NCBI GenBank assembly: GCA_044234345.1
Contig: JBIIIW010000002.1
Span: forward strand, 1-53,251
DNA: 53,251 bases
Source: Minisyncoccia bacterium
GTDB lineage: Bacteria > Patescibacteriota > Minisyncoccia > Phycocordibacterales > PALSA-1337
Reading direction: 5' to 3'
Shown here: piece by piece, positions 2,209-49,270 of the stretch
How positions within the stretch are numbered: the first letter of the stretch is position 1
How the letters are laid out: each line of letters begins with the position of its first letter
The notes under the pieces: model-generated
The model's database searches: none
Seen by the model: the letters and a program-made list of their open reading frames with translations, nothing else
What the model was told of the DNA's origin: nothing
Made by a program: the position numbers and the translations under genes

Positions 2209-3480
2209 ATGAAATTCAACCAAACAAGACTAGATAACGGACTTAGGATAGTTACTGTACCAATGGAGGATAATCCTGCAGTTACTGTACTTGTAATGGT
2301 TGAGACTGGCTCAAAGTACGAATCAAAGAATACTAATGGGCTATCACACTTCTTGGAGCACATGATGTTTAAAGGTACTACAAAAAGACCTACTGCTATG
2401 GATATAACCAAAGAACTGGATTCATTAGGAGCACATTACAATGCATTTACAGGACAAGAATATACTGGATATTATGCAAAGGTTAGTAAAGAAAAGATTG
2501 ATAGTGCTCTAGATATTGTGTCAGACATATATCTAGATCCATTACTAAACGAGAAGGAAATAGAGAAAGAGAAAGGAGTAATTATCGAAGAAATACGAAT
2601 GTATCAAGATCTACCACACAGACATATTCATGATGTGTTTCTAAGTCTTGTATATGGAGATCAACCAGCTGGATGGAATGTTGCAGGAACAGAGGATACA
2701 GTAAAGAGTTTTAAGAGAGAAGATTTTAAGAAGTATCTCGAAGAGCACTACGTAGCTGAAGCTACTACTGTAGTTGTTTCTGGATCATTCAATGAACAAG
2801 AAGTGATTGAGAAGATAAAGGGGAAGTTTAGTAATATCTCAACTTCAAAGAACCAACCAAAACTTAAGGTAATAGAGGAGCAGAGTAGTCCTCGTATTGT
2901 TTTGAAGTTTAAAGAAACAGATCAGGCTCATATAGTACTTGGTGTAAGATCATATGATGCAAGAAGTACTAACGACTCTACAATATCAGTACTAGCTACT
3001 CTTCTTGGTGGTGGTATGAGTTCTCGCTTGTTCCAGAAACTTAGAGAAGAAATGGGAGTTGGATACTATGTAAGAGCAAATCAAGACTCATATACAGATC
3101 ACGGTATACTAGCTATATCTACTGGAATAGATACAAAAAGAATTGATGAAGTGATATCTACTTTGATATCAGAATGCAAGAAAATAGTTAATGAAGACAT
3201 TACAGAGGAAGAGTTGAACAGAGTTAAGGACTATATGTCAGGATCATTCATCCTAGGACTTGAAACGTCTGATTCAAGAGCTGAATATTGCGCTATAAAC
3301 CAAATACTGAAGGGCAGTATAGATACACCACAGACAGAGATTGATAAGATAAGGAAGGTTACTGTGGAGGATATAAAGAAAGTGGCTCGTGATATCTTTG
3401 TTGATGAAAAGCTAAATATGGCTATAATTGGTCCATACAAGGATGAAGCTCGATTTGCTAAGCTATTAACTTTTAAATAA
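2209..3480 (+). CDS. M16 (pitrilysin) family zinc peptidase
   Basis: 423 aa with the inverted zinc motif HFLEHMMFKGT (HxxEH) near the N-terminus. Confidence 0.9.
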   Translation: MKFNQTRLDNGLRIVTVPMEDNPAVTVLVMVETGSKYESKNTNGLSHFLEHMMFKGTTKRPTAMDITKELDSLGAHYNAFTGQEYTGYYAKVSKEKIDSALDIVSDIYLDPLLNEKEIEKEKGVIIEEIRMYQDLPHRHIHDVFLSLVYGDQPAGWNVAGTEDTVKSFKREDFKKYLEEHYVAEATTVVVSGSFNEQEVIEKIKGKFSNISTSKNQPKLKVIEEQSSPRIVLKFKETDQAHIVLGVRSYDARSTNDSTISVLATLLGGGMSSRLFQKLREEMGVGYYVRANQDSYTDHGILAISTGIDTKRIDEVISTLISECKKIVNEDITEEELNRVKDYMSGSFILGLETSDSRAEYCAINQILKGSIDTPQTEIDKIRKVTVEDIKKVARDIFVDEKLNMAIIGPYKDEARFAKLLTFK

Positions 3481-4919
3481 TGAAAAGATATTACATAACA
3501 ACAACACTTCCTTACCTAAACGCTGAGCTTCATCTCGGTCACGCTATCGAATTCATTCGTGCTGATGTTATAGCTCGCACAAAGAAACTACAAGGTTATG
3601 ATGTATTCTTCAATACTGGTACAGATGAACATGGAATTAAGATATACAGAAATGCTCAAGCAGTAGGACAAGCACCTCAAGACTATGTTGATGGATTAGC
3701 TGTTAAGTTTGTTGAACTCTTACCTCTATTAGGTCTTTCAAAAGATATTAATGTAATACGTACTACAGACGAGCGTCATAAAAAAGCTGCACAAGAGTTT
3801 TGGAAGTTGTGTAAGGATAACGGATATATCTACAAGAAGAATTACAAGATAAAGTATTGTGTTGGATGTGAGCTCGAGAAAACTGAAAGTGAACTAGTAG
3901 AGGGTAAGTGTTCAATACACCCACTTATGATAATCGAGGAGATTGAAGAAGAAAACTATTTCTTCAAGTTCAGTGAATTACAAAAACCACTTTTGAAGTT
4001 GTACGAGAACAATCCTAAGTTAGTAGTTCCTGACTTTAGATTCAATGAGATCAAAGCATTTGTAGAAAGGGGATTACAAGACTTCAGTATATCTAGACTG
4101 AAGAGTAAGATGCCATGGGGAGTAGAAGTACCTGATGATAGTGAACATGTAATGTATGTATGGTTTGATGCTCTAGTTAGCTATATATCTACACTAGGAT
4201 GGCCAGAGAACAAACAATCATTTGAGGATTGGTGGGTTAAGTCTGAAAATGTAGTTCAATATTGTGGTAAGGATAACCTTAGACAACAGAGTGCAATGTG
4301 GCAGGCAATGTTAATTGCTGCAGGATTACCAAACTCAAGACAAATAGTCATTGATGGTTTTGTTACTGGAGAGGGAGGAGTGAAGATGAGTAAGTCACTT
4401 GGAAACGTTGTAAGTCCACTAGAGGTGATAAAGGAATATGGTACTGATGCACTAAGATACTTCCTTCTGAGAGAAGTGTCTCCTTTTGAAGACAGTCCAT
4501 TTACAATTGAGAGATTCAAGGAAGCATACAATGCTCATCTAGCTAACGGACTTGGAAATCTAGTTAGTAGAGTAATGAAGATGGCTGAGAGTAATGGAGT
4601 AACTCTAGATGAAAAAGCAGCACCAGCGTTAGATACTAATAAGTATATAGAGCTATATAATAACTTTGAGATAAATAGAGTATGTGATGACATCTGGAGT
4701 CATATACAGGATGTAGATAAGTTCATACAGGAATATCAGCCGTTTAAGACTGTAAAGACTGATGTAGAGAAAGGTAAGCAACAGATCTCATTCTGCCTAG
4801 CTTCGATATGGTACATAGCACAAGCACTAGAGCCAATACTTCCAGAGTCATCAATCATAATACAACAGGGAATTAAGTCAGGTAAGATGCCAGAGAAACC
4901 GCTATTTATGAGAAAGTAG
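3480..4919 (+). CDS. metG: Methionine--tRNA ligase (short form)
   Basis: 479 aa. Has the HLGH-type HIGH motif (LHLGHAIEF), KMSKS (KMSKSLGN) and a Cys knuckle CVGCE...KCSIH. The start overlaps the upstream stop (TAATG). Confidence 0.95.
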   Translation: MKRYYITTTLPYLNAELHLGHAIEFIRADVIARTKKLQGYDVFFNTGTDEHGIKIYRNAQAVGQAPQDYVDGLAVKFVELLPLLGLSKDINVIRTTDERHKKAAQEFWKLCKDNGYIYKKNYKIKYCVGCELEKTESELVEGKCSIHPLMIIEEIEEENYFFKFSELQKPLLKLYENNPKLVVPDFRFNEIKAFVERGLQDFSISRLKSKMPWGVEVPDDSEHVMYVWFDALVSYISTLGWPENKQSFEDWWVKSENVVQYCGKDNLRQQSAMWQAMLIAAGLPNSRQIVIDGFVTGEGGVKMSKSLGNVVSPLEVIKEYGTDALRYFLLREVSPFEDSPFTIERFKEAYNAHLANGLGNLVSRVMKMAESNGVTLDEKAAPALDTNKYIELYNNFEINRVCDDIWSHIQDVDKFIQEYQPFKTVKTDVEKGKQQISFCLASIWYIAQALEPILPESSIIIQQGIKSGKMPEKPLFMRK

Positions 4920-4920
4920 T

Positions 4921-5691
4921 ATGAAATATATTGATATACATTGTCATCTAAACTTAGATGAATACAATCTAGATATACAAGAGACAATTAAGAGAGCTAA
5001 TGATCTAGGAGTCGGTATGATTGTTGTTGGGGTGGATATAGAGAGTTCTAAGAGGGCTATAAAGATTGCTGAGGAAAATGAGAATATATGGGCTTGCATA
5101 GGATTGCACCCAGCTGATGATCCAAAGGAGGTATTTGATTTCGATATATACAGAAAACTTGCCGAGCATCCGAAGGTGGTTGCGATAGGGGAAACTGGAT
5201 TTGATTACTACCATATGCAAACCTCAGATACTGATAGACAGAGAGAAATATTTGAAAAGCATATAACTATCGCTAATGAAGTAAACAAACCATTAATGCT
5301 ACATATTAGAAATGGAGTAAATGGTGGAGATGCATATGGAGATGCAATTGCATCATTAAAGAAGCATGCGAAAGTCCATGGAGATGTGCATTTCTTTGCA
5401 GGTTCGCTAGAACAAGCTAAAGAATTCATTAATCTAGGTTTCAAAATATCATTTACCGGAGTTATTACCTTCACTCGTGACTATGATGAGGTAATACAGA
5501 ATATTCCACTTAATATGATAATGTCAGAGACTGACTCACCATTCGTTACTCCAGTACCATACAGAGGTCAGAGAAATGAACCTGGCTACGTTATAGAGGT
5601 TGTAAACAAAATTGCAGAGATTAGAGGGGAGGATATGGGTATGGTTAGGGAACAGTTGGTTAATAATGCTAAAACATTGTTTAAAATATAG
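4921..5691 (+). CDS. tatD: TatD family metal-dependent hydrolase/DNase
   Basis: 256 aa. N-terminal IDIHCHL, then GETGFDY and the SETDSPF motif, are typical of TatD/YcfH. Confidence 0.9.
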   Translation: MKYIDIHCHLNLDEYNLDIQETIKRANDLGVGMIVVGVDIESSKRAIKIAEENENIWACIGLHPADDPKEVFDFDIYRKLAEHPKVVAIGETGFDYYHMQTSDTDRQREIFEKHITIANEVNKPLMLHIRNGVNGGDAYGDAIASLKKHAKVHGDVHFFAGSLEQAKEFINLGFKISFTGVITFTRDYDEVIQNIPLNMIMSETDSPFVTPVPYRGQRNEPGYVIEVVNKIAEIRGEDMGMVREQLVNNAKTLFKI

Positions 5692-8340: not shown

Positions 8341-9405
8341 TTATTTTACTTCTGCAAGCTGAGCCCTGATCTTACCAAGTATCTCAGATCTAATAGATTC
8401 ATTCTCCTTAAGGAATTGACGTGTAGCATCATATCCACGTCCTAGCTTAACTTCTCCATATGCATATGAAGTACCAGACTTAGATATGATAGCCATCTTC
8501 TCTCCAAGAGCAATGATTTCTCCTTCTTGAGATATACCTTCGTTGTACATTAGATCAAACTCTGTCTGTCTAAATGGAGCAGCAACCTTGTTCTTAACCA
8601 CCTTAACTCTAACTCTTCCTCCCATTATCTCCTCACCCTTCTTTATCTGAGCAATTCTACGGATATCTAGACGAACAGAGGTATAGAACTTAAGAGCCTT
8701 TCCTCCAGGAGTAGTCTCTGGGTTACCAAACATAACACCAATCTGCATACGTATCTGGTTAATGAATATCACCACAGTCTTTGACTTAGCAACAATACTT
8801 GTAAGCTTACGAAGTGCTTGTGACATTAGTCTAGCTTGCTTACCAACATGGTGAGCTCCCATATCACCCTCAATCTCATCCTTAGGTGTTAGAGCAGCGA
8901 CTGAGTCAACAACTATCACATCCATCTTTCCAGAGTTAACAAGACTCTCTACAATACCAAGAGCTTGTTCTCCAGATTCAGGTTGAGAGATGATGAGTTC
9001 ATCTGTCTTAACACCAAGCCTCTTAGCATACTCAGGGTCTAGTGCATGCTCAGCATCGATAAAGGCACATATACCACCTAGTTTCTGTGCTTCTGCAACG
9101 ATATGGAGTGACAGAGTAGTCTTGCCTGATGATTCAGGTCCAAATATCTCTATGATACGTCCACGAGGCATTCCACCTATTCCAAGAGCAGAATCAAGCC
9201 CTATAGAGCCTGTTGGTATGGCATTAACATTAACCTTTGGCTTGTCACCAAGCTTCATGATTGACTCATCACCAAATTTAGAACGTATAGCATCTAGAGT
9301 AGAGCCAATACTTAAAGTTGGATCAATACTTTTAACCTCTTTTTTCTCTTCAACTTCCACAACATCATCTGTTTTCTTCACCTTTTCCTTTGATTTTTTT
9401 GTCAT
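8341..9405 (-). CDS. recA: Recombinase RecA
   Basis: 354 aa. Walker [10 protein letters not shown], plus [11 protein letters not shown] and the [23 protein letters not shown] motifs. Confidence 0.97.
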
Positions 9406-9483: not shown

Positions 9484-9846
9484 TTAAATTCCGTCTTGAT
9501 AGACAAGTTCTAATTTGTATTCAGTAGTTCTATTAAACTTATCTTTTGCAGTAATTACTGAAACATTGTAACCGGGATGTAACAGTATAGTGTTTGTAAA
9601 GTTACCTTGTTTGTCTAGAAGAATAGGTTTCTTGTTAAGCTCTATGTCTCGTATGTGTATCGCCTGGCCTTGTATGGTTACAGTCGAAGTCGATATAGTC
9701 GAACCATTCTCAGGGTACGTTATCAATATCTCTGGTCCAGCTATATAGTCTCTAAAAGAGAAGAATGAATACAATACAACCACTGTTGCAATTAATACGA
9801 ATACAGTAATCTTTACAATTCTCTTTGTCTCGTCACGATTAATCAT
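9484..9846 (-). CDS. Hypothetical membrane-anchored protein
   Basis: 120 aa with one N-terminal TM helix. The start overlaps the ftsK stop by 1 nt (TAATG), implying co-translation. Confidence 0.6.
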   Translation of the reverse strand: MINRDETKRIVKITVFVLIATVVVLYSFFSFRDYIAGPEILITYPENGSTISTSTVTIQGQAIHIRDIELNKKPILLDKQGNFTNTILLHPGYNVSVITAKDKFNRTTEYKLELVYQDGI

Positions 9847-20963: not shown

Positions 20964-21455
20964 ATGGCAAGAACAAAAGTAGAGAAGAAAGAGATACTTG
21001 AAAAACTTGAAGGTATAGTTAAGGATGCACAGTCAATGGTCTTTGTTAACTTTCACGGATTGAATGTAGCTGATACTACACAAGTACGAAGAAAGCTTAA
21101 GGACGAAAAGGTAGGATTCTTTGTTTCAAAGAAATCACTTACTAAAAAAGTTCTTGATGGAAAGAAGTTCACAGGAACACTTCCAGAACTAGTAGGAGAG
21201 GTTGGACTTGCATACGGAGTAGATCTTATAGCACCTGCACGTGAGGTATATGAGTTCCAAAAGAAATACAAGGGTAACATCTCAATTCTAGGAGGAGTAT
21301 TCGAAGGTAAGTTTATGTCAAAGGAAGAAATGATGGCAATAGCTCTCATCCCTTCACAAAAAACTCTTCAAGCAATGTTCGTTAATGTTATCAACTCACC
21401 TATACAAGGGTTTGTTATGGCACTCGATCAAATCGCAAAGAAAAAGACAGTTTAG
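20964..21455 (+). CDS. rplJ: 50S ribosomal protein L10
   Basis: 163 aa with a typical L10 N-terminus, immediately upstream of rplL. Confidence 0.92.
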   Translation: MARTKVEKKEILEKLEGIVKDAQSMVFVNFHGLNVADTTQVRRKLKDEKVGFFVSKKSLTKKVLDGKKFTGTLPELVGEVGLAYGVDLIAPAREVYEFQKKYKGNISILGGVFEGKFMSKEEMMAIALIPSQKTLQAMFVNVINSPIQGFVMALDQIAKKKTV

Positions 21456-21486
21456 TTATATTATTATTTAAATTAAAATTATTACA

Positions 21487-21867
21487 ATGGAAGAATTACA
21501 AATCCCAGCAAAGTTTAAGTCAGTTGTTGAGACAATCGAAACAATGTCAGTTTTGGATCTTAACGAATTAGTAAAGCTTCTTGAGAAGAAGTTCGGAGTA
21601 TCAGCAGCAGCGGTAGCTACAGCAGCTCCAGTTGCAGCTGCAGCAGCAGACGAAAAGTCTACAGTTGCTCTACACCTAGCTTCAGCAGGTGAACAGAAGA
21701 TCGCAGTTATCAAGGTAGTTAAGGAAGCTCTAGCTCTAGGTCTAAAGGAAGCTAAGGACATGGTAGACGGAGCTCCAATCCTAGTTAAGGATGGAATGAA
21801 GAAGGAGGACGCAGATGCTCTAAAGAAGAAGATCGAAGAGGCTGGAGGAAAGGTAGAATATAAATAA
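21487..21867 (+). CDS. rplL: 50S ribosomal protein L7/L12
   Basis: 126 aa with an Ala-rich hinge and the C-terminal [26 protein letters not shown]...EEAGGKVE. Confidence 0.97.
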
Positions 21868-23392: not shown

Positions 23393-24200
23393 ATCCCTTA
23401 CACAGAAATATGTTAAGAAATCACATTAAACGGCCATAACTCACATTGCTTTTTAAGTAGTGTAAGCACTGGCCGCGAAAGCGGTTTTTTGTAACAACAG
23501 AACGACTGACACATTGAAAATTGAATACTCAAACAGTCTCAACAATCAGGAGGCTGTTTGGGAAAAAGGTAATACTGCGAAATGTATATATTAAAAAAGG
23601 GTTTTTTCGAATATATACACGTAACAGTATGTTGTAGTTGTAGACAAATAATTGTGGTTTTTAGATTTCCTAATGGGAAATTTAAGAGTATATGGTGGAT
23701 GCCTAGGCTTATAAGAAGCGATGAAGGACGTGGCTTGGCGACGATATGTTTCGGGGAGGTGCCTAGCAACCTTTGATCCGAAAATTTCCGAATGAGGAAA
23801 CTCTCTGACTTCGAGTCAGAATTAACATGCTTGACATGTTAATGCACACCCAGGGAAGTAAAACATTTCAGTACCTGGAGGAATAGAAACTAAATAAGAA
23901 TTTCGTAAGTAGCGGCGAGCGAAAGCGGAAGAGCCCAAACTCAACCTTTATCGTATTATGGGACGTAAGTCTTGTAATGCGATAAAGGTTGGGGGTAGTA
24001 AGGCAGAGACGTTCCATTTATGGAAGAGAAGTTACAAAATTTTTTGATAGAAGAATAGACTGGAAAGTCTAGCCCCAGAAGGTGATAGCCCTGTAGTCGA
24101 AATCAAAAAGTCTTCTTTGTTTCTGTTCTTGAGTACCTCGAGACACGAATAGCTCGGGGGAATCTGCCGGAACTAACCGGTAAGGCTAAATATTCTATAA

Positions 24201-24240
<40 letters not shown>

Positions 24241-24813
24241 CAGCCCGGTGAGGGCGATGAAATAGACCTGAAACCATATATTTACAAGGAGTAGAAGAGG
24301 TAGCAATACCTCGACTGCGTGCCTATTGAAGAATGAGCCAACGAGTTGAAGCATGCTGCAGGCTAAGCGCGAGAGCGTGGAGCCACAGGGAAACCGAGTG
24401 TGAATAGCGCGTTCGTAGTATGCATCAGACCCGAAGCCAGATGAGCTTGCCTTGAGCAGGTTGAAGTGATTCGAAAGAATTATGGAGGACCGAACGCTAA
24501 AGTTGTGCAATTCTTTGCGATGACTTGAGGTAAGGAGTGATAAGCTAATCGAATCTGGTAATAGCTGGTTCTCTCCGAAATAGCTTTTGGGCTAGCGTTG
24601 AATGTACCCCTCTGGGGTAGAGCACTGGAAGGTCTTGACAGGTCGCAAGATCACAAGACCTATCAAACTCCGAATACAGAGGATTAATTATTCAGCAGTT
24701 AGACGGTGGGGGCTAAGCTCCATGCGTCAAAAAGGAAACAGCCTAGATCTCCATTTAAGGTCCCTAAATCTATGTTAAGTACACTTAAGGTGGTTGAATT
24801 TCTCAAACAATGA

Positions 24814-24845
<32 letters not shown>

Positions 24846-25661
24846 GAAAGCGTAACAGCTCACTCATCGAGAGATTCTGCGCCGCAGATAATCGGGGTTA
24901 AACATAGTACCGAAACTGAGGATTGTATTTTATTTCGATAATTTACAGTGGTAGGAGAGTATTCCAATCTGCGTTGAAGGCAAAGGCGTGAGCCATGCTG
25001 GAGCGTTTGGAAGTAAGAATGTTGGCACAAGTAACCACAATGCGGGTGAGAATCCCGCACGCCGAAAGAACAAGGTTTCCTTGGCTATGAAAATCAGCCA
25101 AGGGTTAGTCGGGCCTAAGGGGATGGTGAAAACCGCACCCGATGGACACATGGTTAATATTCCATGACTTTTATATAGAGTGACGGAGGGACGAAGGGTA
25201 GTATATGACGCTCGTTATTGGATTTGAGTGCATGCTGTAGGGGATTCACCTAGGAAAATCCGGGTGGTGTCTTTAATGACAATTCCGAGCAGAGTGCAAA
25301 CGTGAGGGTTCGCCCTTGCGGATGTTATAAAGCACGCTTCCGAGAAAATCTTCTAAACTTATCTATATAGGAACCGTACCGCAAACCGACACAGGTGTTC
25401 AGGTCGAGTAGACCAAGGCGAACGAGTGAGAGGTCTCCAAGGAACTCGGCAAAAAATCAGCCGTAACTTCGGAATAAGGCTTGCCCTTTGTTAACTCAAG
25501 GGGCCGCAGCTAAAGTATCTCTGGCAACTGTTTATCAAAAACACAGCTCCCTGCGAACTCGTAAGAGGATGTATAGGGGGTGACACTTGACCAATGCCAG
25601 AAGGTCAAATATCGACGTTGTGAGAGTCGCAAGATTTTCATGGTGATTGATATAAGCCCTG

Positions 25662-25696
<35 letters not shown>

Positions 25697-25914
25697 TCTC
25701 GATTCATCTTTGATGAGTCGAGAAGGACTAGGACTGTTATATAGCAAAAGTGGACGTCAAGATAAACTAGATTAAAACATTACATAAACAAGCTACCTAC
25801 AATTAAGTAATTAATTGTTGAGTCCATGTGGGTAAATAGAGACCAACCCCACGCATCCGATCTCCGTAAGGTGAGGATGAAGATAGAGTCCTACTGTGCT
25901 TAAAGGAATAGTAG
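25697..25914 (+). other. 218-nt intervening sequence in 23S, after the U equivalent to E. coli U1931
   Basis: The exon junction restores CCTAAGGT|AGCGAAATTCC. The insert starts after U and ends in G, has long-range pairing (TAGGACT 25732-25738 with AGTCCTA 25889-25895), and contains no ORF. Confidence 0.8.
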
Positions 25915-26577
25915 AGCGAAATTCCTTGTCGGGTAAGTTCCGACGCGCACGAATAGTGTAATGTCTGGAGAACTGTCTCGGAGACTTGCTCGGTGAAAAT
26001 ACAATATCGGTGAAGATGCCGATTACCCACAGTTAGACGAAAAGACCCTAGAAGCTTTACTGCAACTTGATTTTGATTATATGTTTTTTATGCGTAGCGT
26101 AGATGGGAGGAATTGATGCGTTGTTTTCGGGTGACGTTGATCCGCAAGTGAAATACCATTCTTAAAAAATATATACTCTAACCTCGACGGCAAAAACGAC
26201 GAGAGACAGAATCTGGCGGGCAGTTTTAGTGGGGCGCTATCCTCCTAAAAAGTAACGGAGGAGTTTATTAAGGTCAGCTAGGCGCGAATGGAAACCGTGC
26301 CGATAGTGTATAGGCATAAGCTGGCTTGACTGTAAGACGTACTTGTCGAACAGATGCGAAAGCAGAACTAAGTGAACCGACCTTACGCATTAGACGCGGG
26401 GGAAGATTATCGGATAAAAGCTACTCTAGGGATAACAGGCTGGTTGCGCCTAAGCGTTCATAGCGACGGCGCAGTTCGGCACCTCGATGTCGGCTCAACT
26501 TATCCTGGAGGTGGAGAAGCTTCCAAGGGTTTGGCTGTTCGCCAATTAAAAAGTTACGCGAGCTGGGTTCAGACCGT

Positions 26578-26888
26578 TCAGAAGTTGAACGTGTCATAAA
26601 ATATTATGATTTCGACTGTTGAACAGTCTGAATCACTTCGAGTTTTTCGTTTAAGAAAAGTATAAAGTAACATTTATACAAAATAAAAGTATAGGAAGTA
26701 GATCAATCAAACACGGCGGTCCTCTACAGTAATGTAGATGTGATCAAGTTAACTAGTATCGGTGGAATCCATGAAAAAGGGATAATACCGAGGGAAATCG
26801 AAAGATACCCGTAGAGACTAAACGTTAACACTCCACAATGTGTGGAATAAGCTATAGTCCATTGCAATAAGTAATTATTGATAACATG
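26578..26888 (+). other. 311-nt intervening sequence in 23S, after the U equivalent to E. coli U2593
   Basis: The exon junction restores GGGTTCAGACCGT|CGTGAGACAGGT. The insert ends in G and contains several hairpins, including a GTAA tetraloop. There is no ORF. Confidence 0.8.
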
Positions 26889-27280
26889 CGTGAGACAGGT
26901 TGGTCTCCTATCTACTGTGGGCGTTGATTCTTGAGGGGATTTGTTTTTAGTACGAGAGGACCGAAATGAACGAACCTCTGGTGTGACTGCTGTTCTGCCA
27001 AGAGCATCGCAGTGTAGCTATGTTCGGAATGGATAACTTCTGAAAGCATCTAAGAAGGAAGCCAACCCCAAGATTAGGAATCGTTTGAGACCCGTAAGAG
27101 ATGATTACGTTGATAGGCTTTAGGTGTACGCACAGCAATGTGTTGAGCCGAGAAGTACTAATCCGTCGATCCTATTAGGAAATTTAAGAACCACAATTAC
27201 TTGTCTATAACAAATACAACAATATTATCTGAAAATTTTGCAAAAGCAGAAGTTTTTGCATACACAATTGAATTTTTTGT

Positions 27281-27389
27281 TCTGGTGATTTGGCGCTGTG
27301 GAAACACCCGTTCCCATTCCGAACACGGAAGTGAAACGCAGTTGCGGCGATGATACTCATATGAAGGGGAAAGTAGCTAGTCGCCAGTA
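27281..27389 (+). rRNA. rrf: 5S rRNA
   Basis: CCGAACACGGAAGTGAAACGC...GCGGCGATGATA core. The terminal helix pairs CTGGTGA with TCGCCAG. Confidence 0.9.
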
Positions 27390-27440: not shown

Positions 27441-27453
27441 CTATAATACACTT

Positions 27454-28245
27454 ATGGCATCATGGTCAGCTAAAAGAAAATTGAGTTATGCATCAATAGT
27501 TTTTGGTGTAATTTTAATATTTATAATCATCCCCTCCTTCTATTTCTTCTACAAGGCACCTACATGTTTCGATAATATTATGAATGGAGACGAGACTGGA
27601 ACTGATTGTGGTGGATCCTGTGCAAGATTGTGTCAGAGTGCATTCCTCCCACCAAGAATTGAGTGGGGAGGAGCAAAGATTGAGAAGCTTGCAGATGGAC
27701 TATATAACGCAGCATCATATATTGTTAACCCAAATATAAACGGAGGAGCAGTAGATGTGCCGTATAAGATATCGCTATACGACTCAGAGGGAATATTAAT
27801 AACAGAAAAGAATGGAACAGTTAACCTGTATCCAGGTAGAAACTCATTAGCATTCCAGACAGCAATAAAGACATATAAAAGAATACCTACCAAAGCAACA
27901 TTTGAATTTCTGAAATCACCAGTATGGTTTAAATCAACTGACAGACTTGGTGGAATATTTGTGGTAGACAAGAAGTACAATGAAGATCAAAATGGATCAT
28001 CACTAGAAGTGACACTGGAGAACAAAAATCTAACTACATACAATAATATAAATGTGTCCGTTGTTCTCTCTGATATAGATGGTAATGTAATTGGTTTTTC
28101 TCAAACAAGAGTGGACTCAGTAGGAGTAAAGGGAGTAAATGAAAACTATAGGGAAGTAGCTCCATTTACATGGCCGATAAGTAGAGATGGTAAAGTTACC
28201 TCAATAGAAGTAATGCCTCTCATTAGACCTGTACTCGTTCAATAG
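27454..28245 (+). CDS. Hypothetical membrane-anchored protein with a Cys-rich motif
   Basis: 263 aa with an N-terminal TM helix, then CFDNIMNGDETGTDCGGSCARLC. The extended -10 TGCTATAAT ends 6 nt before the ATG. Confidence 0.65.
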   Translation: MASWSAKRKLSYASIVFGVILIFIIIPSFYFFYKAPTCFDNIMNGDETGTDCGGSCARLCQSAFLPPRIEWGGAKIEKLADGLYNAASYIVNPNINGGAVDVPYKISLYDSEGILITEKNGTVNLYPGRNSLAFQTAIKTYKRIPTKATFEFLKSPVWFKSTDRLGGIFVVDKKYNEDQNGSSLEVTLENKNLTTYNNINVSVVLSDIDGNVIGFSQTRVDSVGVKGVNENYREVAPFTWPISRDGKVTSIEVMPLIRPVLVQ

Positions 28246-31951: not shown

Positions 31952-31967
31952 GCTATAATTTTACTCC

Positions 31968-36421: not shown

Positions 36422-36449
36422 TTGCAAAAACACTGTAAATCTCTATAAT
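36422..36449 (+). promoter_or_regulatory. secDF promoter TTGCAA-N16-TATAAT
   Basis: A consensus -10 ends 9 nt before the secD ATG, implying a 1-3 nt leader. Confidence 0.6.
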
Positions 36450-38843: not shown

Positions 38844-38871
38844 TTGACTTTAAATCTACTTCGAGTAGAAT
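38844..38871 (+). promoter_or_regulatory. 16S promoter TTGACT-N16-TAGAAT
   Basis: Strong -35/-10 match, about 240 nt upstream of the 16S 5' end. Confidence 0.55.
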
Positions 38872-39081
38872 ACTCTCTACGCCTTAAGTAAGGCTATTTA
38901 AAAGAGTTTTTCGACAATTTATTAAGTTATGCATTAGAAACGTATTAAAAACACGTGCAAGTCTAATGTCTATATACAACAATGATTTCCTTCAGTTATA
39001 TTCACAACTGATAAGGGCGAAGATCAAACTCAATGCAGCTAAAAATAAGTTCAATATAGTAAATGTAAATTTAAAAGATTT

Positions 39082-39106
39082 CTGTTCTCTATTTTGTTCC
39101 GTTCAT
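39082..39106 (+). other. 5' arm of the 16S precursor processing stem
   Basis: CTGTTCTCTATTTTGTTCCGTTCAT pairs with 40771-40795 over 25 positions, with one mismatch and one G-U. Confidence 0.75.
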
Positions 39107-39107
39107 T

Positions 39108-40607
39108 TTAGTTAAGAGTTTGATCCTAGCTCAGGATGAACGCTGGCGGCGTGGATAAGGCATGCAAGTCAAACGGTGTAGCAATACACAGTGGCAGACG
39201 AGGTAGTAATAAGTAGGTATCAACCTTGAAGTCAGGGATACCTCATCGAAAGATGAGTTAATACTTGATAGTCTCTTCGGAGTAAAGATTTATCGCTTCA
39301 AGATGAGCCTGCTCGGTATCAGCTAGTTGGTGAGGTAAAAGCTCACCAAGGCTATGACGCCTAGGGGACCTGAGAGGGTGACCCCCACCGATGGAACTGA
39401 GACACGGTCCATACACCTACGGGTGGCCGCAGTCGAGAATCTTCCGCAATGGACGAAAGTCTGACGGAGCGACGCCGCGTGAACGATGAAGTCCTTCGGG
39501 ATGTAAAGTTCTTTTGCCAGGGAGAAAGTTTATTGATAGTACTTGGCGAATAAGAGGTTGCTAAACTCGTGCCAGCAGCAGCGGTAATACGAGTGCCTCA
39601 AGCGTTATCCGGAATCATTGGGCGTAAAGGTTGTGTAGGTGGTTATATTAGTCTTTTGTTAAATTCTTCGGCTTAACCGGGGACATGCAAAGGAAACGGT
39701 ATGACTAGAGGATGCGAGGGGTCTGCGGAACTCATAGTGTAGCGGTAAAATGCGTTGATATTATGGGGAACACCAAAAGCGAAGGCAGCAGACTGGAGCA
39801 CTCCTGACACTGAAACAAGAAAGCGTGGGTCGCGAATGGGATTAGATACCCCAGTAGTCCACGCCCTAAACGATCTTCTCTAGTTTTTCGGAGTATCGAC
39901 CCTCTGAGAGACGTAGCTAACGCGTTAAGAGAAGCGCCTGGGTAGTACGACCGCAAGGTTAAAACTCAAAGGAATAGACGGGGACTTGCACAAGCAGTGG
40001 ATCATGTGGTTTAATTCGATGATAAACGAAGAACCTTACCAGGGTTTAATCTAGCTGAAGACAAGAAGAAACTTTTGTCGTCGCAAGACAGTTAGTCAGG
40101 TGATGCATGGCCGTCGTCAGTTCGTGGCTTGAGTTGTTCCCTTCAGTGGGGTAACGAACGCAACCCTCGTTGTCTGTTATATTTGTCAGGCGAGACTGCC
40201 CACGACAAAGCGCATACATCGGTTCAATCCGATTGTGCTCTGTGTCGTGGGAGGAAGGTGAGGATGACGCCAGGTCAGCATGTCCCTTATACCCTGGGCT
40301 ACACACGTGATACAATGGATGGTACAACAGGACGCAAAACCGAAAGGTGGAGCAAATCCCTATAAAACCATTCTCAGTCCGGATTGAGGTCTGCAACTCG
40401 ACCTCATGAAGCTGGAATTGCTAGTAATCGCAGGTCAGCTATACTGCGGTGAATACGTTCTCAAGTCTTGTACTCACCGCCCGTCAACTCAAGGGAGTTG
40501 GGAATACCCGAAGTCTGCGCTAGTCGCGGCCTAAGGTAAGCTCAATGACAGGGAGTAAGTCGTAACAAGGCACGGGTAGCGGAAGCTGCTCGTGGATTAT
40601 TTCAATT
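39108..40607 (+). rRNA. rrs: 16S rRNA
   Basis: AGAGTTTGATCCTAGCTCAG at the 5' end, GTGCCAGCAGCAGCGGTAATAC, GGATTAGATACCC, and AAGTCGTAACAAGG with helix 45 at the 3' end. The tail reads GGATTATTTCAATT instead of GGATCACCTCCTTA. Confidence 0.95.
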
Positions 40608-40770
40608 TGAATCTCGATTTTAATCTTTTTAGATTACTATCTGACCGAGTCGATTGTTTACTATAATTTATTATAGGAAAACCAAAAGCATTGCTCTACA
40701 CTTTTATGTGAGCACTCAGTCCGCGAGAGAAAGGACATAGGTCGGTACCCTCTATAGAGGTACTGACCGG

Positions 40771-40795
40771 ATGAACGGAACAAAATAAAGGACAG
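40771..40795 (+). other. 3' arm of the 16S precursor processing stem
   Basis: ATGAACGGAACAAAATAAAGGACAG is complementary to 39082-39106. It lies about 165 nt beyond the 16S 3' end. Confidence 0.75.
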
Positions 40796-40919
40796 TTTGT
40801 TTCAGTAAACATAGAACACCCATAAAGGGTGATTTTGTGTTTGTATTGACAAATAATGTGTTAAGTTATACTTTTAATGTAGTCGCCTTCGTAAAACCCT
40901 TGATGGTTCATTCTTCGGA

Positions 40920-41162
40920 ATGTTGGAGGTAAGAGCTCTCTGTCGTGTTATGAAAACAAGAGCCGATACAGACGAGATAGACAGAATGTTTGATTGTCTT
41001 GCTCCCACACAAAGCGAAATAAGGGAGCGAAGAATCGAACAAGCCTTGGATCGTGCGTGGGACTTTATACGCCACAGTCCAAAGTATATCGCTGCAGTAA
41101 TGTTGGTTCTTGCTGCACTCTACATCCTAGCCGCTATGGCGGGTGTCCTGAACGACGGTTAG
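40920..41162 (+). CDS. Hypothetical tail-anchored small protein, 80 aa, with atypical composition
   Basis: The ORF lies between 16S and tRNA-Ile. It is visibly richer in G+C and CpG codons than its neighbours. TTGACA lies at 40846-40851 upstream and a GC hairpin terminator downstream. Whether it is coding is uncertain. Confidence 0.35.
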   Translation: MLEVRALCRVMKTRADTDEIDRMFDCLAPTQSEIRERRIEQALDRAWDFIRHSPKYIAAVMLVLAALYILAAMAGVLNDG

Positions 41163-41176
41163 TCGTTTAGGGAATT

Positions 41177-41212
41177 AGCCCCCGGATTCGATTCGGGGGC
41201 TTTATCTTTTCT
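41177..41212 (+). terminator. Rho-independent terminator
   Basis: AGCCCCC / GGGGGCT stem with an 11-nt loop and a T-rich tail. Confidence 0.7.
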
Positions 41213-41244
41213 TCATTTCCTGATATATTACTTTTTACACACAT

Positions 41245-41317
41245 GCGCGTGTAGCTCAGTTGGTAGAGCATTCGACTGATACTCGGGGGGTCCCAGGTTC
41301 GAATCCTGGCACGCGCA
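41245..41317 (+). tRNA. tRNA-Ile (anticodon GAU)
   Basis: Hand-folded cloverleaf: acceptor GCGCGTG/CACGCGC, D arm GCTC-AGTTGGTA-GAGC, anticodon loop CTGATAC, T arm CCAGG-TTCGAAT-CCTGG, discriminator A. CCA is not encoded. Confidence 0.9.
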
Positions 41318-41350
41318 CAGAATATTTCATATATGCTACAATTAGCATAT

Positions 41351-43834: not shown

Positions 43835-44581
43835 ATGGTAATAAAAAATACAAAACAATACGAAGTAGCAGATACGAACCTGTTTCTAGATAACACAAAT
43901 AGAGAGTATATATTAAAAGTACATGATCTACCAATTGATAGTAGACCAAGAGAGAAGTTGATAAAGAGAGGACCAGAGTCGCTCTCATTACAAGAGCTAT
44001 TAGCAGTAATACTAAACACAGGAACTAAAAGTGAAGGAGTGTTAGAGATGTCATCAAGGATAATTCATGAGTACGGAGAGAAAAGTATAATGTCAGAGAC
44101 AGATGTAAAAGAGCTATCACTAGAGTTAAACATACCAATTGTTAAAGCATGTCAGATAGCTGCATGTGGAGAGATTGGAAGAAGGATATATCAGAAGAAT
44201 GATTATGGATTCTCAGTTATACGAACAGCAAAAGATGCATTTGAGTATCTCAAAGAAATGCATAGTCTTCCCAAAGAGCAGTTAAGAGGTTTGTATCTCA
44301 ACAGTCATAATATGGTAATACATGATGAAGTGATATCTATAGGTACAATAAATACAAATATAGTACATCCGAGAGAAGTGTTTAGACCTGCAATAGAGCA
44401 CAATGCTGTAGCTCTGGTACTTGCCCACAATCATCCTTCTGGGATAGTAACACCAAGTACACAAGACATTGAGATAACAAATCAACTAATTAATGCAGGG
44501 AAGATACTTGGAATACATGTCCTAGATCATGTAGTCATTACTAGAAATACTTATGCAAGTATTAATGCTAAATATAACTAA
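43835..44581 (+). CDS. radC: RadC-like JAB/MPN domain protein
   Basis: 248 aa. PREKLIKRGPESLSLQELLAVIL (HhH part), then LAHNHPSG, the JAMM motif. Confidence 0.88.
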   Translation: MVIKNTKQYEVADTNLFLDNTNREYILKVHDLPIDSRPREKLIKRGPESLSLQELLAVILNTGTKSEGVLEMSSRIIHEYGEKSIMSETDVKELSLELNIPIVKACQIAACGEIGRRIYQKNDYGFSVIRTAKDAFEYLKEMHSLPKEQLRGLYLNSHNMVIHDEVISIGTINTNIVHPREVFRPAIEHNAVALVLAHNHPSGIVTPSTQDIEITNQLINAGKILGIHVLDHVVITRNTYASINAKYN

Positions 44582-44582
44582 T

Positions 44583-44897
44583 ATGAGAACATATACAATC
44601 ACATCACCATACATAGATGGAATACTGTCAGATGATCAAATATACTTTGAGGGAGTTAACAGGCCTGGAGAAATATATACAATTAGAGATTCAGGTACAG
44701 GGTACAATATAGATATTTTAGAGAAATACTTCAATGACCTATATAATCTCTTTCTAAGAAAACTCTCATCATTTGCAATGTTTGAGAATACCGACGATGA
44801 AGAGGTTGTTAAGATGCAAGCGCTATTACAAGAGCTCGTAAAGGTAAAGAAAATGATACAAAATGCATCAGTTGATACAGATGATAATTTAGTATAA
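44583..44897 (+). CDS. Hypothetical protein, 104 aa
   Basis: The ATG at 44583 lies 1 nt after the radC stop. The track start at 44553 overlaps radC. No family recognised. Confidence 0.5.
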   Translation: MRTYTITSPYIDGILSDDQIYFEGVNRPGEIYTIRDSGTGYNIDILEKYFNDLYNLFLRKLSSFAMFENTDDEEVVKMQALLQELVKVKKMIQNASVDTDDNLV

Positions 44898-44906
44898 TGT
44901 GTACTT

Positions 44907-47135: not shown

Positions 47136-47300
47136 ATGAATGCAATTTGTCCAGAATGTAAAAATCAAATAGATATTACAAGATATCCATCAATTAAAGA
47201 GGGTGTAGTAATGGAGTGTAATCACTGTGGTATTACTTTAGCGGTTAAGAAGATAGAGAATGGTGTGGTGTCTAGTGAGATTGTTGATGAAGGGAAGTAA
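47136..47300 (+). CDS. LysW-like zinc-ribbon small protein, 54 aa (below the track cutoff)
   Basis: Hand translation MNAICPECKNQIDITRYPSIKEGVVMECNHCGITLAVKKIENGVVSSEIVDEGK. It has the same length and CPEC...CxxCG...LxV layout as the amino-group carrier LysW. The 3' end overlaps mpl by 29 nt, convergently. Confidence 0.5.
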   Translation: MNAICPECKNQIDITRYPSIKEGVVMECNHCGITLAVKKIENGVVSSEIVDEGK

Positions 47301-48645
47301 CTACCTCCTCAATCATCCCCCTAAACCCATGAGATCCAAGAAAGGCGATAACATCACCTTTTTTTGTGTTGTCTAACACATACTTAACAAGATCAGTATC
47401 TTCAGGAATATACATAGAACTAGTATGAGTCTTAGATATCACTGCACTTAACTCATCACCCTCCATAGGTTGTTCACTACCATCTTGAGACACCTTAAGT
47501 TTAGTTAAACGAGGAATGATAACAATATCAGCAAACTTAAATGCATTATCATACTTAACAACCGACTCCCTACTCCTACCTCCAATATTAGGCTCGAATA
47601 TACATACAATTTTGCCAGAATATATATCTCTTAGATTTCTAAGAACATTACCTGCTTTTTCTGGAGAGTGTGCAATATCATCAAAGATTACAATATCACC
47701 ATCAAGTCTTTTCTCCAGTCTTCTCTTAAGACCCTTGAATTCAGAAATGGCTTTAACAATTATATCTGTAGGTATGCCTAGTTTGTCTGCCATAGCAAAA
47801 CATCCAGTAATGTTCTCAGCTTGGAAGTCACCAATCATCTGAGAATTAATCACAATTCCATTTATCTTAAAATGCAATCCATTAGTATCCTGAACAACAT
47901 CACTGTAAACATAATCTCCGCTACTCTTACCGTACCATACAGCATTTGTAACCAATTCCTTTACCTTCATGTTATCGCTATTAGCCACAATGAATCCAGA
48001 TTGCGGAATATTCTTAATTAAACTCCTAAATGCATCGAAATAGCTTTCTTCAGTAGGGTATAGGTCGGCATGATCCCAAGATACAGCAGAGAGTAGGAGG
48101 TGAGTAGGTTTGTAGTATACAAACTTAGGCGTCTTGTCTGTTGGTGAACTCTTGTATTCATCTCCCTCAAATACACTGTACTTGCTATCAGTAAGTTTTG
48201 CAGATGCAGAATGTGATAGCGATACACCACCAAACATATATGTAGGATTAAATTGAGCTTGTTCTAGTATGTATGATAGCAGGGCAGTAGAAGAAGTCTT
48301 ACCCCATGTTCCAGTAGATACGATAGAGTACTCCTTAACAAAAAACTTACCTATAGCTTCAGCAAATGAATATATTGGTATATTGTTTTCTTTAGCAAAT
48401 ATAGTTTCAGGATTAGATGTACCAGATGCAGTACCAACAATTACAATATCAGGCCTTCCCATATTCTCAGGATGCCAACCAGCATAGAAAGAAATATTAT
48501 GCTTCTCTAGTTCAGTAGATACAGGAGGAAAAAACCCCTTATCAGATCCAGTTACCTTGTAACCTCTGTCGTGGAAGGCAATAGCTAGAGCACTAGTAGC
48601 TACTCCGCAGATGCCGACTATGTGTATGTGTTTGTTATTTTCCAT
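47272..48645 (-). CDS. mpl: Mpl-like Mur ligase (UDP-MurNAc:tripeptide ligase / MurC relative)
   Basis: 457 aa. IHIVGICGVATSALAIAFHDRGYKVTGSDKGFFPPVSTELEK parallels the E. coli Mpl N-terminus. The P-loop is GTWGKTS. Confidence 0.8.
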   Translation of the reverse strand: MENNKHIHIVGICGVATSALAIAFHDRGYKVTGSDKGFFPPVSTELEKHNISFYAGWHPENMGRPDIVIVGTASGTSNPETIFAKENNIPIYSFAEAIGKFFVKEYSIVSTGTWGKTSSTALLSYILEQAQFNPTYMFGGVSLSHSASAKLTDSKYSVFEGDEYKSSPTDKTPKFVYYKPTHLLLSAVSWDHADLYPTEESYFDAFRSLIKNIPQSGFIVANSDNMKVKELVTNAVWYGKSSGDYVYSDVVQDTNGLHFKINGIVINSQMIGDFQAENITGCFAMADKLGIPTDIIVKAISEFKGLKRRLEKRLDGDIVIFDDIAHSPEKAGNVLRNLRDIYSGKIVCIFEPNIGGRSRESVVKYDNAFKFADIVIIPRLTKLKVSQDGSEQPMEGDELSAVISKTHTSSMYIPEDTDLVKYVLDNTKKGDVIAFLGSHGFRGMIEEVVTSLHQQSH

Positions 48646-49270
48646 TTAATATATCCTTTACCTCCCCCAAATCCTTCTTCCACTCCTTACCATCAAACCA
48701 TTCAATACCACTAAACTGTAACTTGTATATATCACTAGGTCTCTGTAGGGATCCAAGATATACATATTTTAAACCATTAACCTTAGCTTGAGAAATGACC
48801 TTTGTCATCATTATAATCCCCATATCCTTTACACTCTTACCAATATCATAGAAAGGGTAGCAATAGTGGATCATGTGAGAGTTCTCATAACATATAGCGT
48901 AACCAAGTTTAGAGAACGAGAACAAGGAATTAAAGTTATGATTAGTTGTTAATAGCTCCTTAATCTTGTTTGCAGAAAAAGCACCATTAGCCTTTACATC
49001 ATAGAAGTCTTTAGCCATCTTACCAATCTCAAAGCTATAGTCTGAATATGGAATACCATACTTCTCCATGATAACCTCTTCACCCTTACGTAATATCCTT
49101 CTGTTCTCGCTACTAAGCTCAAATGCACTTAAATCAATACGAACACTTCTAGTCTGATGCATTACACCCACATCAATTCTGGTAAACACAAAACCATTGT
49201 CATACATTCGAGTAATACTTTCAGCAGACTCTAAAGTAACCTTTTCCTCTTTCCAGTGTAAATATTCCAT
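48635..49270 (-). CDS. ATE/Bpt-like aminoacyl-tRNA--protein transferase homologue (C-terminal domain only)
   Basis: 211 aa. RSVRIDLSAFELSSENRRILRK and YCYPFYD...GLKYVYLGS...IYKLQFSGIEWFDGKEW resemble the ATE_C/Bpt signatures. The gene is tightly packed between mraY and mpl. Confidence 0.6.
   Translation of the reverse strand: MEYLHWKEEKVTLESAESITRMYDNGFVFTRIDVGVMHQTRSVRIDLSAFELSSENRRILRKGEEVIMEKYGIPYSDYSFEIGKMAKDFYDVKANGAFSANKIKELLTTNHNFNSLFSFSKLGYAICYENSHMIHYCYPFYDIGKSVKDMGIIMMTKVISQAKVNGLKYVYLGSLQRPSDIYKLQFSGIEWFDGKEWKKDLGEVKDILNGK

Follow-up and report, generated by a model that had tools for sequence, protein, structure and literature searches.

A 16S rRNA without the anti-Shine-Dalgarno motif on a contig assigned to Parcubacteria, and candidate substitutes for Shine-Dalgarno-dependent start selection

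The window analysed here is a stretch of 53,251 nucleotides from a Minisyncoccia bacterium (contig JBIIIW010000002.1, GenBank assembly GCA_044234345.1), and the element in question is the 3' tail of its 16S ribosomal RNA (rRNA), the site of the anti-Shine-Dalgarno (anti-SD) motif CCUCC. The rRNA genes of the window are split and reordered: the 23S-5S pair (23669-27389) lies on the same strand 11.7 kb upstream of the 16S-tRNA-Ile unit (39108-41318), with about 11 protein genes in between (ftsW, glycosyltransferases, secDF and others). RecA (8341-9405, minus strand) has matches at 81-97% identity among the 120 listed (85-89% for the named ones), and SecF has matches at 70-98% among those listed (71-74% for the named ones). 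The named matches are Candidatus Paceibacterota bacterium, Patescibacteria group bacterium and Candidatus Taylorbacteria bacterium; judged by the names on the best protein matches, the window belongs to the Parcubacteria (Paceibacteria, Candidate Phyla Radiation (CPR)).

The 16S gene is matched from end to end by the Rfam model RF00177, and the covariance-model alignment places its 3' boundary at 40607, the model end (position 1533; Table 1). In a focused search of the 3' end, the consensus GAUcACCUCCUUu (RF00177 positions 1521-1533) aligns with the tail GAUUAUUUCAAUU without gaps and at top posterior probability, and UUUCA at 40600-40604 occupies the CCUCC site (E. coli positions 1535-1539). 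The 16S rRNA of the window truly lacks the anti-SD, its 3' end being placed by the model on DNA. The sequence-only reading, made before any search, had described a tail without CCUCC behind an intact helix 45 and no CCTCC from the 16S body to a processing-stem arm at 40771, and all of this is borne out. Indeed, the motif search of the window found no CCTCC on the plus strand between 29813 and 46657, and therefore none between the 16S body and the stem arm, and 40771-40795 is complementary to 39082-39106.

The variant tail is shared with relatives. The tail GAUUAUUUCAA(A/U)UUGA follows secF in three metagenome-assembled genomes (MAGs; GCA_031384385.1, GCA_044228445.1 and GCA_964459225.1, loci L124, L126 and L129), twice as GAUUAUUUCAAAUUGAAUCU and once as GAUUAUUUCAAUUUGAUCAU, and the whole of helix 45 is the same as in the window. 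The gene order around the window is kept as well in NCBI MAGs located via RecA and SecF homologs. Scanning metagenomes for the core of helix 45 returned at least 120 loci. Among the loci listed, 118 16S ends (117 fetched loci and the window) were classified, 80 of them with the canonical GAUCACCUCCUUUCUAGGGAG and 38 without CCUCC; the latter include the window and L001, and six of the 38, probably outliers or variants close to canonical, were left aside. The 5' strand of helix 45, CACGGGUAGC, is identical in 20 of the metagenome 16S genes listed, and all 20 lack CCUCC. The tails of loci bearing this strand include GAUUAUUUCAAAUUGAA, GAAUAAUUCAAUUUGAA, GAAUAUUUCAAGGUGAAA, GAUCAUUUUUUUUAAAAA and GAUCAUUUAUUU; GAUCAAUUAAA is found where helix 45 is a closely related variant, and L001, whose helix 45 has a 1-nt bulge, ends in GAUCAAUUAAACU, also without CCUCC. 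Among the loci listed, those without anti-SD are the nearest to the window 16S, mostly with 74-87% identity where several hundred bases can be compared. As the same tail recurs in three independent syntenic MAGs, and all metagenome 16S genes listed with the identical strand lack CCUCC, it is a heritable feature of a clade and neither chance nor mis-assembly.

Nor are SD motifs enriched in front of the genes of this clade. SD-like 4-mers (GGAG, GAGG or AGGA starting at -16 to -7) were counted in 131 genes from 32 anti-SD-less sequences (31 fetched loci and the window) and in 173 genes from 80 anti-SD-plus loci, both being crude longest-open-reading-frame calls and the latter set mixing several phyla. 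They precede 8/131 genes of the clade (11/131 at the control position) and 36/173 genes of the anti-SD-plus loci (control, 11/173), and the two groups differ with p = 2.5e-4 (Fisher). Among 87 database-called genes from five syntenic relatives, for which the start model of the gene finder is not known, the motif precedes two (six at the control position). The calculated duplex energy between the canonical core and the region -22 to -3 of 41 window genes is -0.90 kcal/mol, and the control region pairs more strongly (-2.37 kcal/mol), nor does the canonical tail pair better upstream than permuted tails; in the anti-SD-plus loci, which served as positive control, the expected excess is seen (-3.11 vs -2.40 kcal/mol, permutation p = 0.02). 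An unbiased search for enriched upstream k-mers returned A/T-rich words only (ATAA, AATA, AATCA, AAATAA, TATAA, ATAAT). Taken over the 41 window genes (duplex energies with the canonical and the native tail), the 131 clade genes and the 87 database-called genes, the tests gave no enrichment; these genes use no SD, be it canonical or alternative. This agrees with the sequence-only reading, which had seen no GGAGG-like tracts before the starts that it checked and had considered SD pairing unusable: the 4-mers are at or below control level, and 4-mer counts, duplex energies and k-mer enrichment all support its view.

A different signal is found in front of the starts. A TATAAT-like hexamer (at most one mismatch) starting at -15 to -11 precedes 42 of the 131 clade genes (7 and 12 in the controls) and 28 of the 87 database-called genes (controls, 6 and 12), vs 19/173 in the anti-SD-plus loci (p = 1e-5 against the clade). 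This frequency of 32% of genes compares with a background of 5.5% when every ATG triplet in the window is taken. The most frequent spacer between hexamer and start is 7 nt in the longest-frame calls and 6 nt in the database calls; note that 6-7 nt is the usual gap from a -10 box to the transcription start. Many boxes have an extended upstream TG (TGnTATAAT), and orthologs (the gene at 27454, secD, murD) preserve the box at its distance from the start, with a spacer of variable sequence (examples in Table 1). Furthermore, 82 of the 87 database-called genes start with ATG. Since a -10 box ending 6-8 nt before ATG would place the 5' end of the transcript on the start codon or directly beside it, about one third of the genes are probably transcribed as leaderless messenger RNAs (mRNAs).

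For another group of genes, translational coupling appears to be available. The start lies no more than 10 nt from the end of the preceding gene in 9/41 window genes and 14/87 genes of the relatives (~15-20%), several of them overlapping the stop codon, as in the TAATG of metG (Table 1); other window starts close behind an upstream stop are those at 4921, 17326, 28247 and 37813. Altogether, 15 of the 41 window genes have a box, 9 are coupled and 17 have neither; among the 17 are several probable mis-calls of TTG as start, and others are A-rich upstream.

We consider it likely that this lineage of Parcubacteria has lost the anti-SD, does not choose its starts by SD pairing and uses leaderless mRNAs, coupling and A/U-rich leaders instead. 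In such a scheme, about one third of the genes would be read from leaderless mRNAs, made from a -10 box (often TGnTATAAT) that ends 6-8 nt before ATG; genes starting within 10 nt of the preceding gene would be served by termination-reinitiation; and the residual class would comprise SD-independent leadered genes with A/U-rich upstream regions and no motif complementary to the tail. Several points weigh against this scheme. We deduce leaderless transcription solely from the geometry of promoter boxes, and the genome itself is rich in AT (37% GC). When 20 kb were scanned for generic two-hexamer promoters, 59 sites were found vs 71 +/- 10 in shuffled sequences, so the case for leaderless starts rests on positional enrichment and not on overall counts. 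Around 40% of the genes have neither box nor coupling; these are probably mis-called in part, and the others would need a third mechanism. Finally, the window covers 53 kb of the genome, and another 16S copy whose tail is canonical could lie elsewhere.

The genes with neither box nor coupling and the result of the generic scan speak for the strongest alternative, namely that initiation is SD-independent and mostly leadered, as in Bacteroidetes, with unstructured A-rich 5' untranslated regions binding the ribosome and the boxes being a by-product of AT-richness. Many of these genes are indeed A-rich upstream (e.g., aaaaatATG before rpsF, ssb and rpsR). However, the hexamer is sharply position-specific, and a spacer of mostly 6-7 nt leaves room for a very short leader at most; many boxes carry the extended TG and are conserved in orthologs whose spacers vary. 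Moreover, Bacteroidetes retain the anti-SD according to a study on them (PMC6847099), whereas the window clade has lost it. We therefore regard a mostly leadered system as unlikely.

A second alternative concerns the tail itself. The U-rich tail behind the GC-rich helix 45 could be an intrinsic terminator that ends the 16S transcript, now that the 23S gene no longer follows. Helix 45 together with GAUUAUUUCA (40571-40604) was flagged as terminator-like in the scan of the window, helix 45 is followed by GAUCAUUUUUUUU in some relatives (L012, L055, L102), and no 23S gene is located downstream of the window 16S. Yet in the subgroup of the window the U-run is short and not continuous, and the 25-bp processing stem of the 16S precursor requires its 3' arm (40771-40795), 164-188 nt beyond the tail, so at least some transcripts must read through; the tRNA-Ile gene follows further downstream. 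With the processing stem lying downstream, termination at the tail is disfavoured for the window and in our view very improbable.

Still less probable is a co-evolved pair of alternative anti-SD and SD, in which mRNAs would carry GAAAUA-like motifs ahead of their starts as partners of the tail core UAUUUC. (A/T)GAAATA is present 4-8 nt before ATG in a few window genes (9484-9846 on the minus strand, recA and the gene at 44553), and AAATA-type words are enriched upstream. Nevertheless, the native tail pairs with the region -22 to -3 of the 41 window genes no better than with the control region (-1.98 vs -2.06 kcal/mol; permuted tails, -2.14 +/- 0.36), and 69% of the permutations are equal or better. 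All enriched words lack G and they overlap with the -10 box, and the tails vary widely among relatives (UAUUUC, CAUUUUUUUU, CAAUUAAA) while the upstream signal stays the same. The literature is also against such a pair, as no matching variant SD was found in 128 anti-SD-less taxa (Amin et al. 2018, PMC6107228). In the absence of a tail-complementary upstream motif, by duplex energies as well as by k-mers, this candidate was rejected. As a separate observation, a single window gene (47272-48645, minus strand) has a GGGGGAGG tract upstream, at about -20 to -13 (region 48646-48675); this tract falls inside coding sequence, that of the overlapping gene upstream, and is in all likelihood due to chance.

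That the tail is mis-assembled or chimeric, or the gene a 16S pseudogene with a canonical copy elsewhere, can practically be dismissed: although only 53 kb of the genome are visible and rRNA genes are sites where metagenome assemblies may break or be joined wrongly, the gene matches the model from end to end and has an intact helix 45, a 25-bp processing stem surrounds the gene, tail and gene order are identical in three independent MAGs, dozens of metagenome contigs have related tails, genes of the window and its relatives have no SD signal, and published surveys report the same loss in Parcubacteria.

The former anti-SD may nonetheless have kept a structural partner. The tails of canonical relatives form a hairpin between CUCC (positions 1536-1539) and a GGAG located a few bases further along, in the spacer (CCUCCUUUCUAGGGAG), and the window has a mini-hairpin at the same position (Table 1). 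In a test anchored on tail positions 7-10 of unique tails, with 200 shuffles, the hairpin was found in 70 of the 76 canonical tails (shuffle expectation 16.8) and in 28 of the 38 anti-SD-less ones (expectation 14.3, maximum 22). The pair at 1536 changes from C-G in canonical tails to U-A in 23 anti-SD-less tails, and that at 1539 from C-G to A-U (13 tails) or U-A (4 tails), giving hairpins such as UUCA/UGAA (window), UCCA/UGGA (L068), UUCC/GGAA (L082, L072) and UCCU/AGGA (L062). These helices are tiny and weak and the choice of register was partly guided by the sequences themselves, so that the data suggest the maintenance of a tail-spacer hairpin by compensatory changes as a lead and not as proof. 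Such pairing in the precursor suggests a role independent of SD, pointing to rRNA maturation.

The tail would have drifted to an A/U-rich sequence once SD pairing had become dispensable, with its pairing to the downstream spacer retained. Note that Era, which binds GAUCACCUCC, has been lost in most CPR (PMC10582724), and with it a second constraint on the tail would be removed. It is conceivable, and we put it forward tentatively, that start-site choice in this clade is mostly transcriptional, with the -10 box substituting for a ribosome-binding site, supplemented by reinitiation, and that the former anti-SD survives only as a hairpin arm. If this is true, the hairpin would have a function in maturation independent of SD pairing.

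SD/anti-SD pairing is the textbook mode of bacterial start selection, and few rRNA elements are as strongly conserved as the anti-SD; a whole environmental clade that lacks it offers a natural experiment on how bacteria translate without SD. Both CCUCC and SD motifs are lost likewise in Carsonella, Hodgkinia, some Mycoplasma and mammalian mitochondria (12S rRNA). Mammalian mitochondrial mRNAs are largely leaderless. However, these endosymbionts and organelles are unrelated cases of extreme genome reduction, whereas the loss described here spans a broad environmental clade with 16S identities down to ~74%. A parallel for the promoter signal is offered by leaderless-mRNA-rich bacteria such as Actinobacteria and Deinococcus-Thermus ('group C' of GeneMarkS-2): the -10 motif characteristic of the leaderless type, centred ~10 nt upstream of starts, is found here in a sizeable share of genes. 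Actinobacteria and Deinococcus-Thermus keep a canonical anti-SD and use SD for leadered genes, whereas in the window clade the anti-SD has gone altogether. The predominance of ATG starts is common to the window clade and to these leaderless-mRNA-rich groups (Zheng et al. 2011, PMC3160421).

Bacteroidetes, in particular Flavobacteriia, resemble the clade in their largely SD-independent initiation and A-rich upstream regions (Baez et al. 2019, PMC6847099). Most Bacteroidetes keep the anti-SD, which their ribosomes retain according to that study, and they are not reported to have -10 boxes abutting the starts, in contrast to the window clade, which lacks the former and has the latter; a retained anti-SD combined with mRNAs devoid of SD is thus not the situation of the window. 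Some Flavobacteriia have a variant anti-SD (PMC6107228, PMC10783764).

The nearest parallel is found within the Parcubacteria. The anti-SD motif was detected in just 48% of them, and its absence overlaps with the group lacking the ribosomal protein uL1 (Tsurumaki et al. 2022, PMC9297842); Ca. Campbellbacteria and Ca. Wolfebacteria are listed as SD-scarce and without CCUCC (PLoS One 2024, PMC10783764). The window shares with this subgroup the CPR affiliation, the intact helix 45 followed by a tail without CCUCC and the missing SD signal. Its rplJ-rplL pair (20964-21867) is preceded by a gene for an LCAT-like esterase of ~900 amino acids instead of rplK-rplA, as also in two relatives (L122, 103-1005; L123, 1-911). 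This context fits the uL1-lacking group without proving it, as rplA could be located elsewhere in the genome. More generally, organisms without anti-SD also tend to lack SD, with no compensating variant SD (Amin et al. 2018, PMC6107228). As the loss of the anti-SD in a subgroup of Parcubacteria has already been published, the window represents another member of this subgroup and not a discovery. The Parcubacteria papers report the loss (and, in the 2024 paper, the scarcity of SD) but propose no replacement, whereas the window clade shows the -10 box signal and the hairpin; among the papers searched, none was found that ties Parcubacteria or Patescibacteria to leaderless initiation. What is added here is a testable replacement (leaderless promoters plus coupling) and the putatively compensated tail-spacer hairpin. 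With leaderless and coupled starts, SD-based start models would be expected to mis-call the starts in such MAGs.

Table 1. Position of the 16S rRNA elements, start-associated motifs and neighbouring RNA features in the window.
Feature	Coordinates	Strand	Remarks
Probable 16S promoter TTGACT-16-TAGAAT	38844-38871	+	10/12 matches; consensus match only
Pre-16S processing stem, 5' arm	39082-39106	+	25 nt, 92% complementary to 40771-40795
16S rRNA gene, full length	39108-40607	+	Rfam RF00177 (SSU_rRNA_bacteria), model 1-1533, 1361.9 bits
Helix 45, intact	40571-40594	+	CACGGGUAGC (40571-40580), GGAA, GCUGCUCGUG (40585-40594); covariance-model alignment
16S 3' tail GAUUAUUUCAAUU	40595-40607	+	aligned to consensus GAUcACCUCCUUu
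Tail-spacer mini-hairpin	40601-40611	+	UUCA (40601-40604), loop AUU, UGAA (40608-40611); same position as canonical CUCC/GGAG hairpin
Pre-16S processing stem, 3' arm	40771-40795	+	25 nt, pairs with 39082-39106, encloses 16S
tRNA-Ile(GAT), 3' of 16S	41245-41318	+	RNA gene model search
TATAAT (TGC before), 6 nt upstream of ATG 27454	27442-27447	+	L124 ortholog: tgcTATAAT + 6 nt + ATG
TATAAT, 8 nt upstream of ATG 31968	31954-31959	+	within 16-nt intergenic gap
TATAAT, 9 nt upstream of secD ATG 36459	36444-36449	+	box and spacing kept in L124, L129
TATAAT, 8 nt upstream of murD GTG 44907	44893-44898	+	conserved in L124, L126
TAATG stop/start overlap, peptidase M16 gene/metG	3478-3482	+	example of coupled start

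Several further features of the locus are typical for CPR, namely the unlinked 23S (with insertions) and 5S genes upstream of 16S, a 40-nt insertion in the 16S gene and a DUF5671 protein encoded nearby. The 23S gene (23669-27181) is 3513 nt long, ~590 nt more than the 2925-position model, with insertions, e.g., near 23949-24030. The 16S insertion, near model position 1160 (40199-40251), forms a hairpin of its own with 16-nt arms that are 88% complementary. In the 16S leader, a 15-nt segment (39017-39031) is 87% complementary to the 5' end of the mature 16S (39116-39130, GAGUUUGAUCCUAGC), which looks like a pairing in the precursor. The 3' trailer contains a GUCGA(U/C) motif (40649-40653 in the window) that is also present 25-50 nt past the 16S in several anti-SD-less loci (L017, L087, L102, L108, L076, L100, L079, L057, L068) and may be a processing signal. 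Between 16S and tRNA-Ile, an open reading frame of 80 amino acids without Pfam match (40920-41162), which is called as a gene on a JGI contig as well, seems to have a higher G+C content than its surroundings; behind it comes a strong hairpin, GC-rich and with a T-run (41177-41201).

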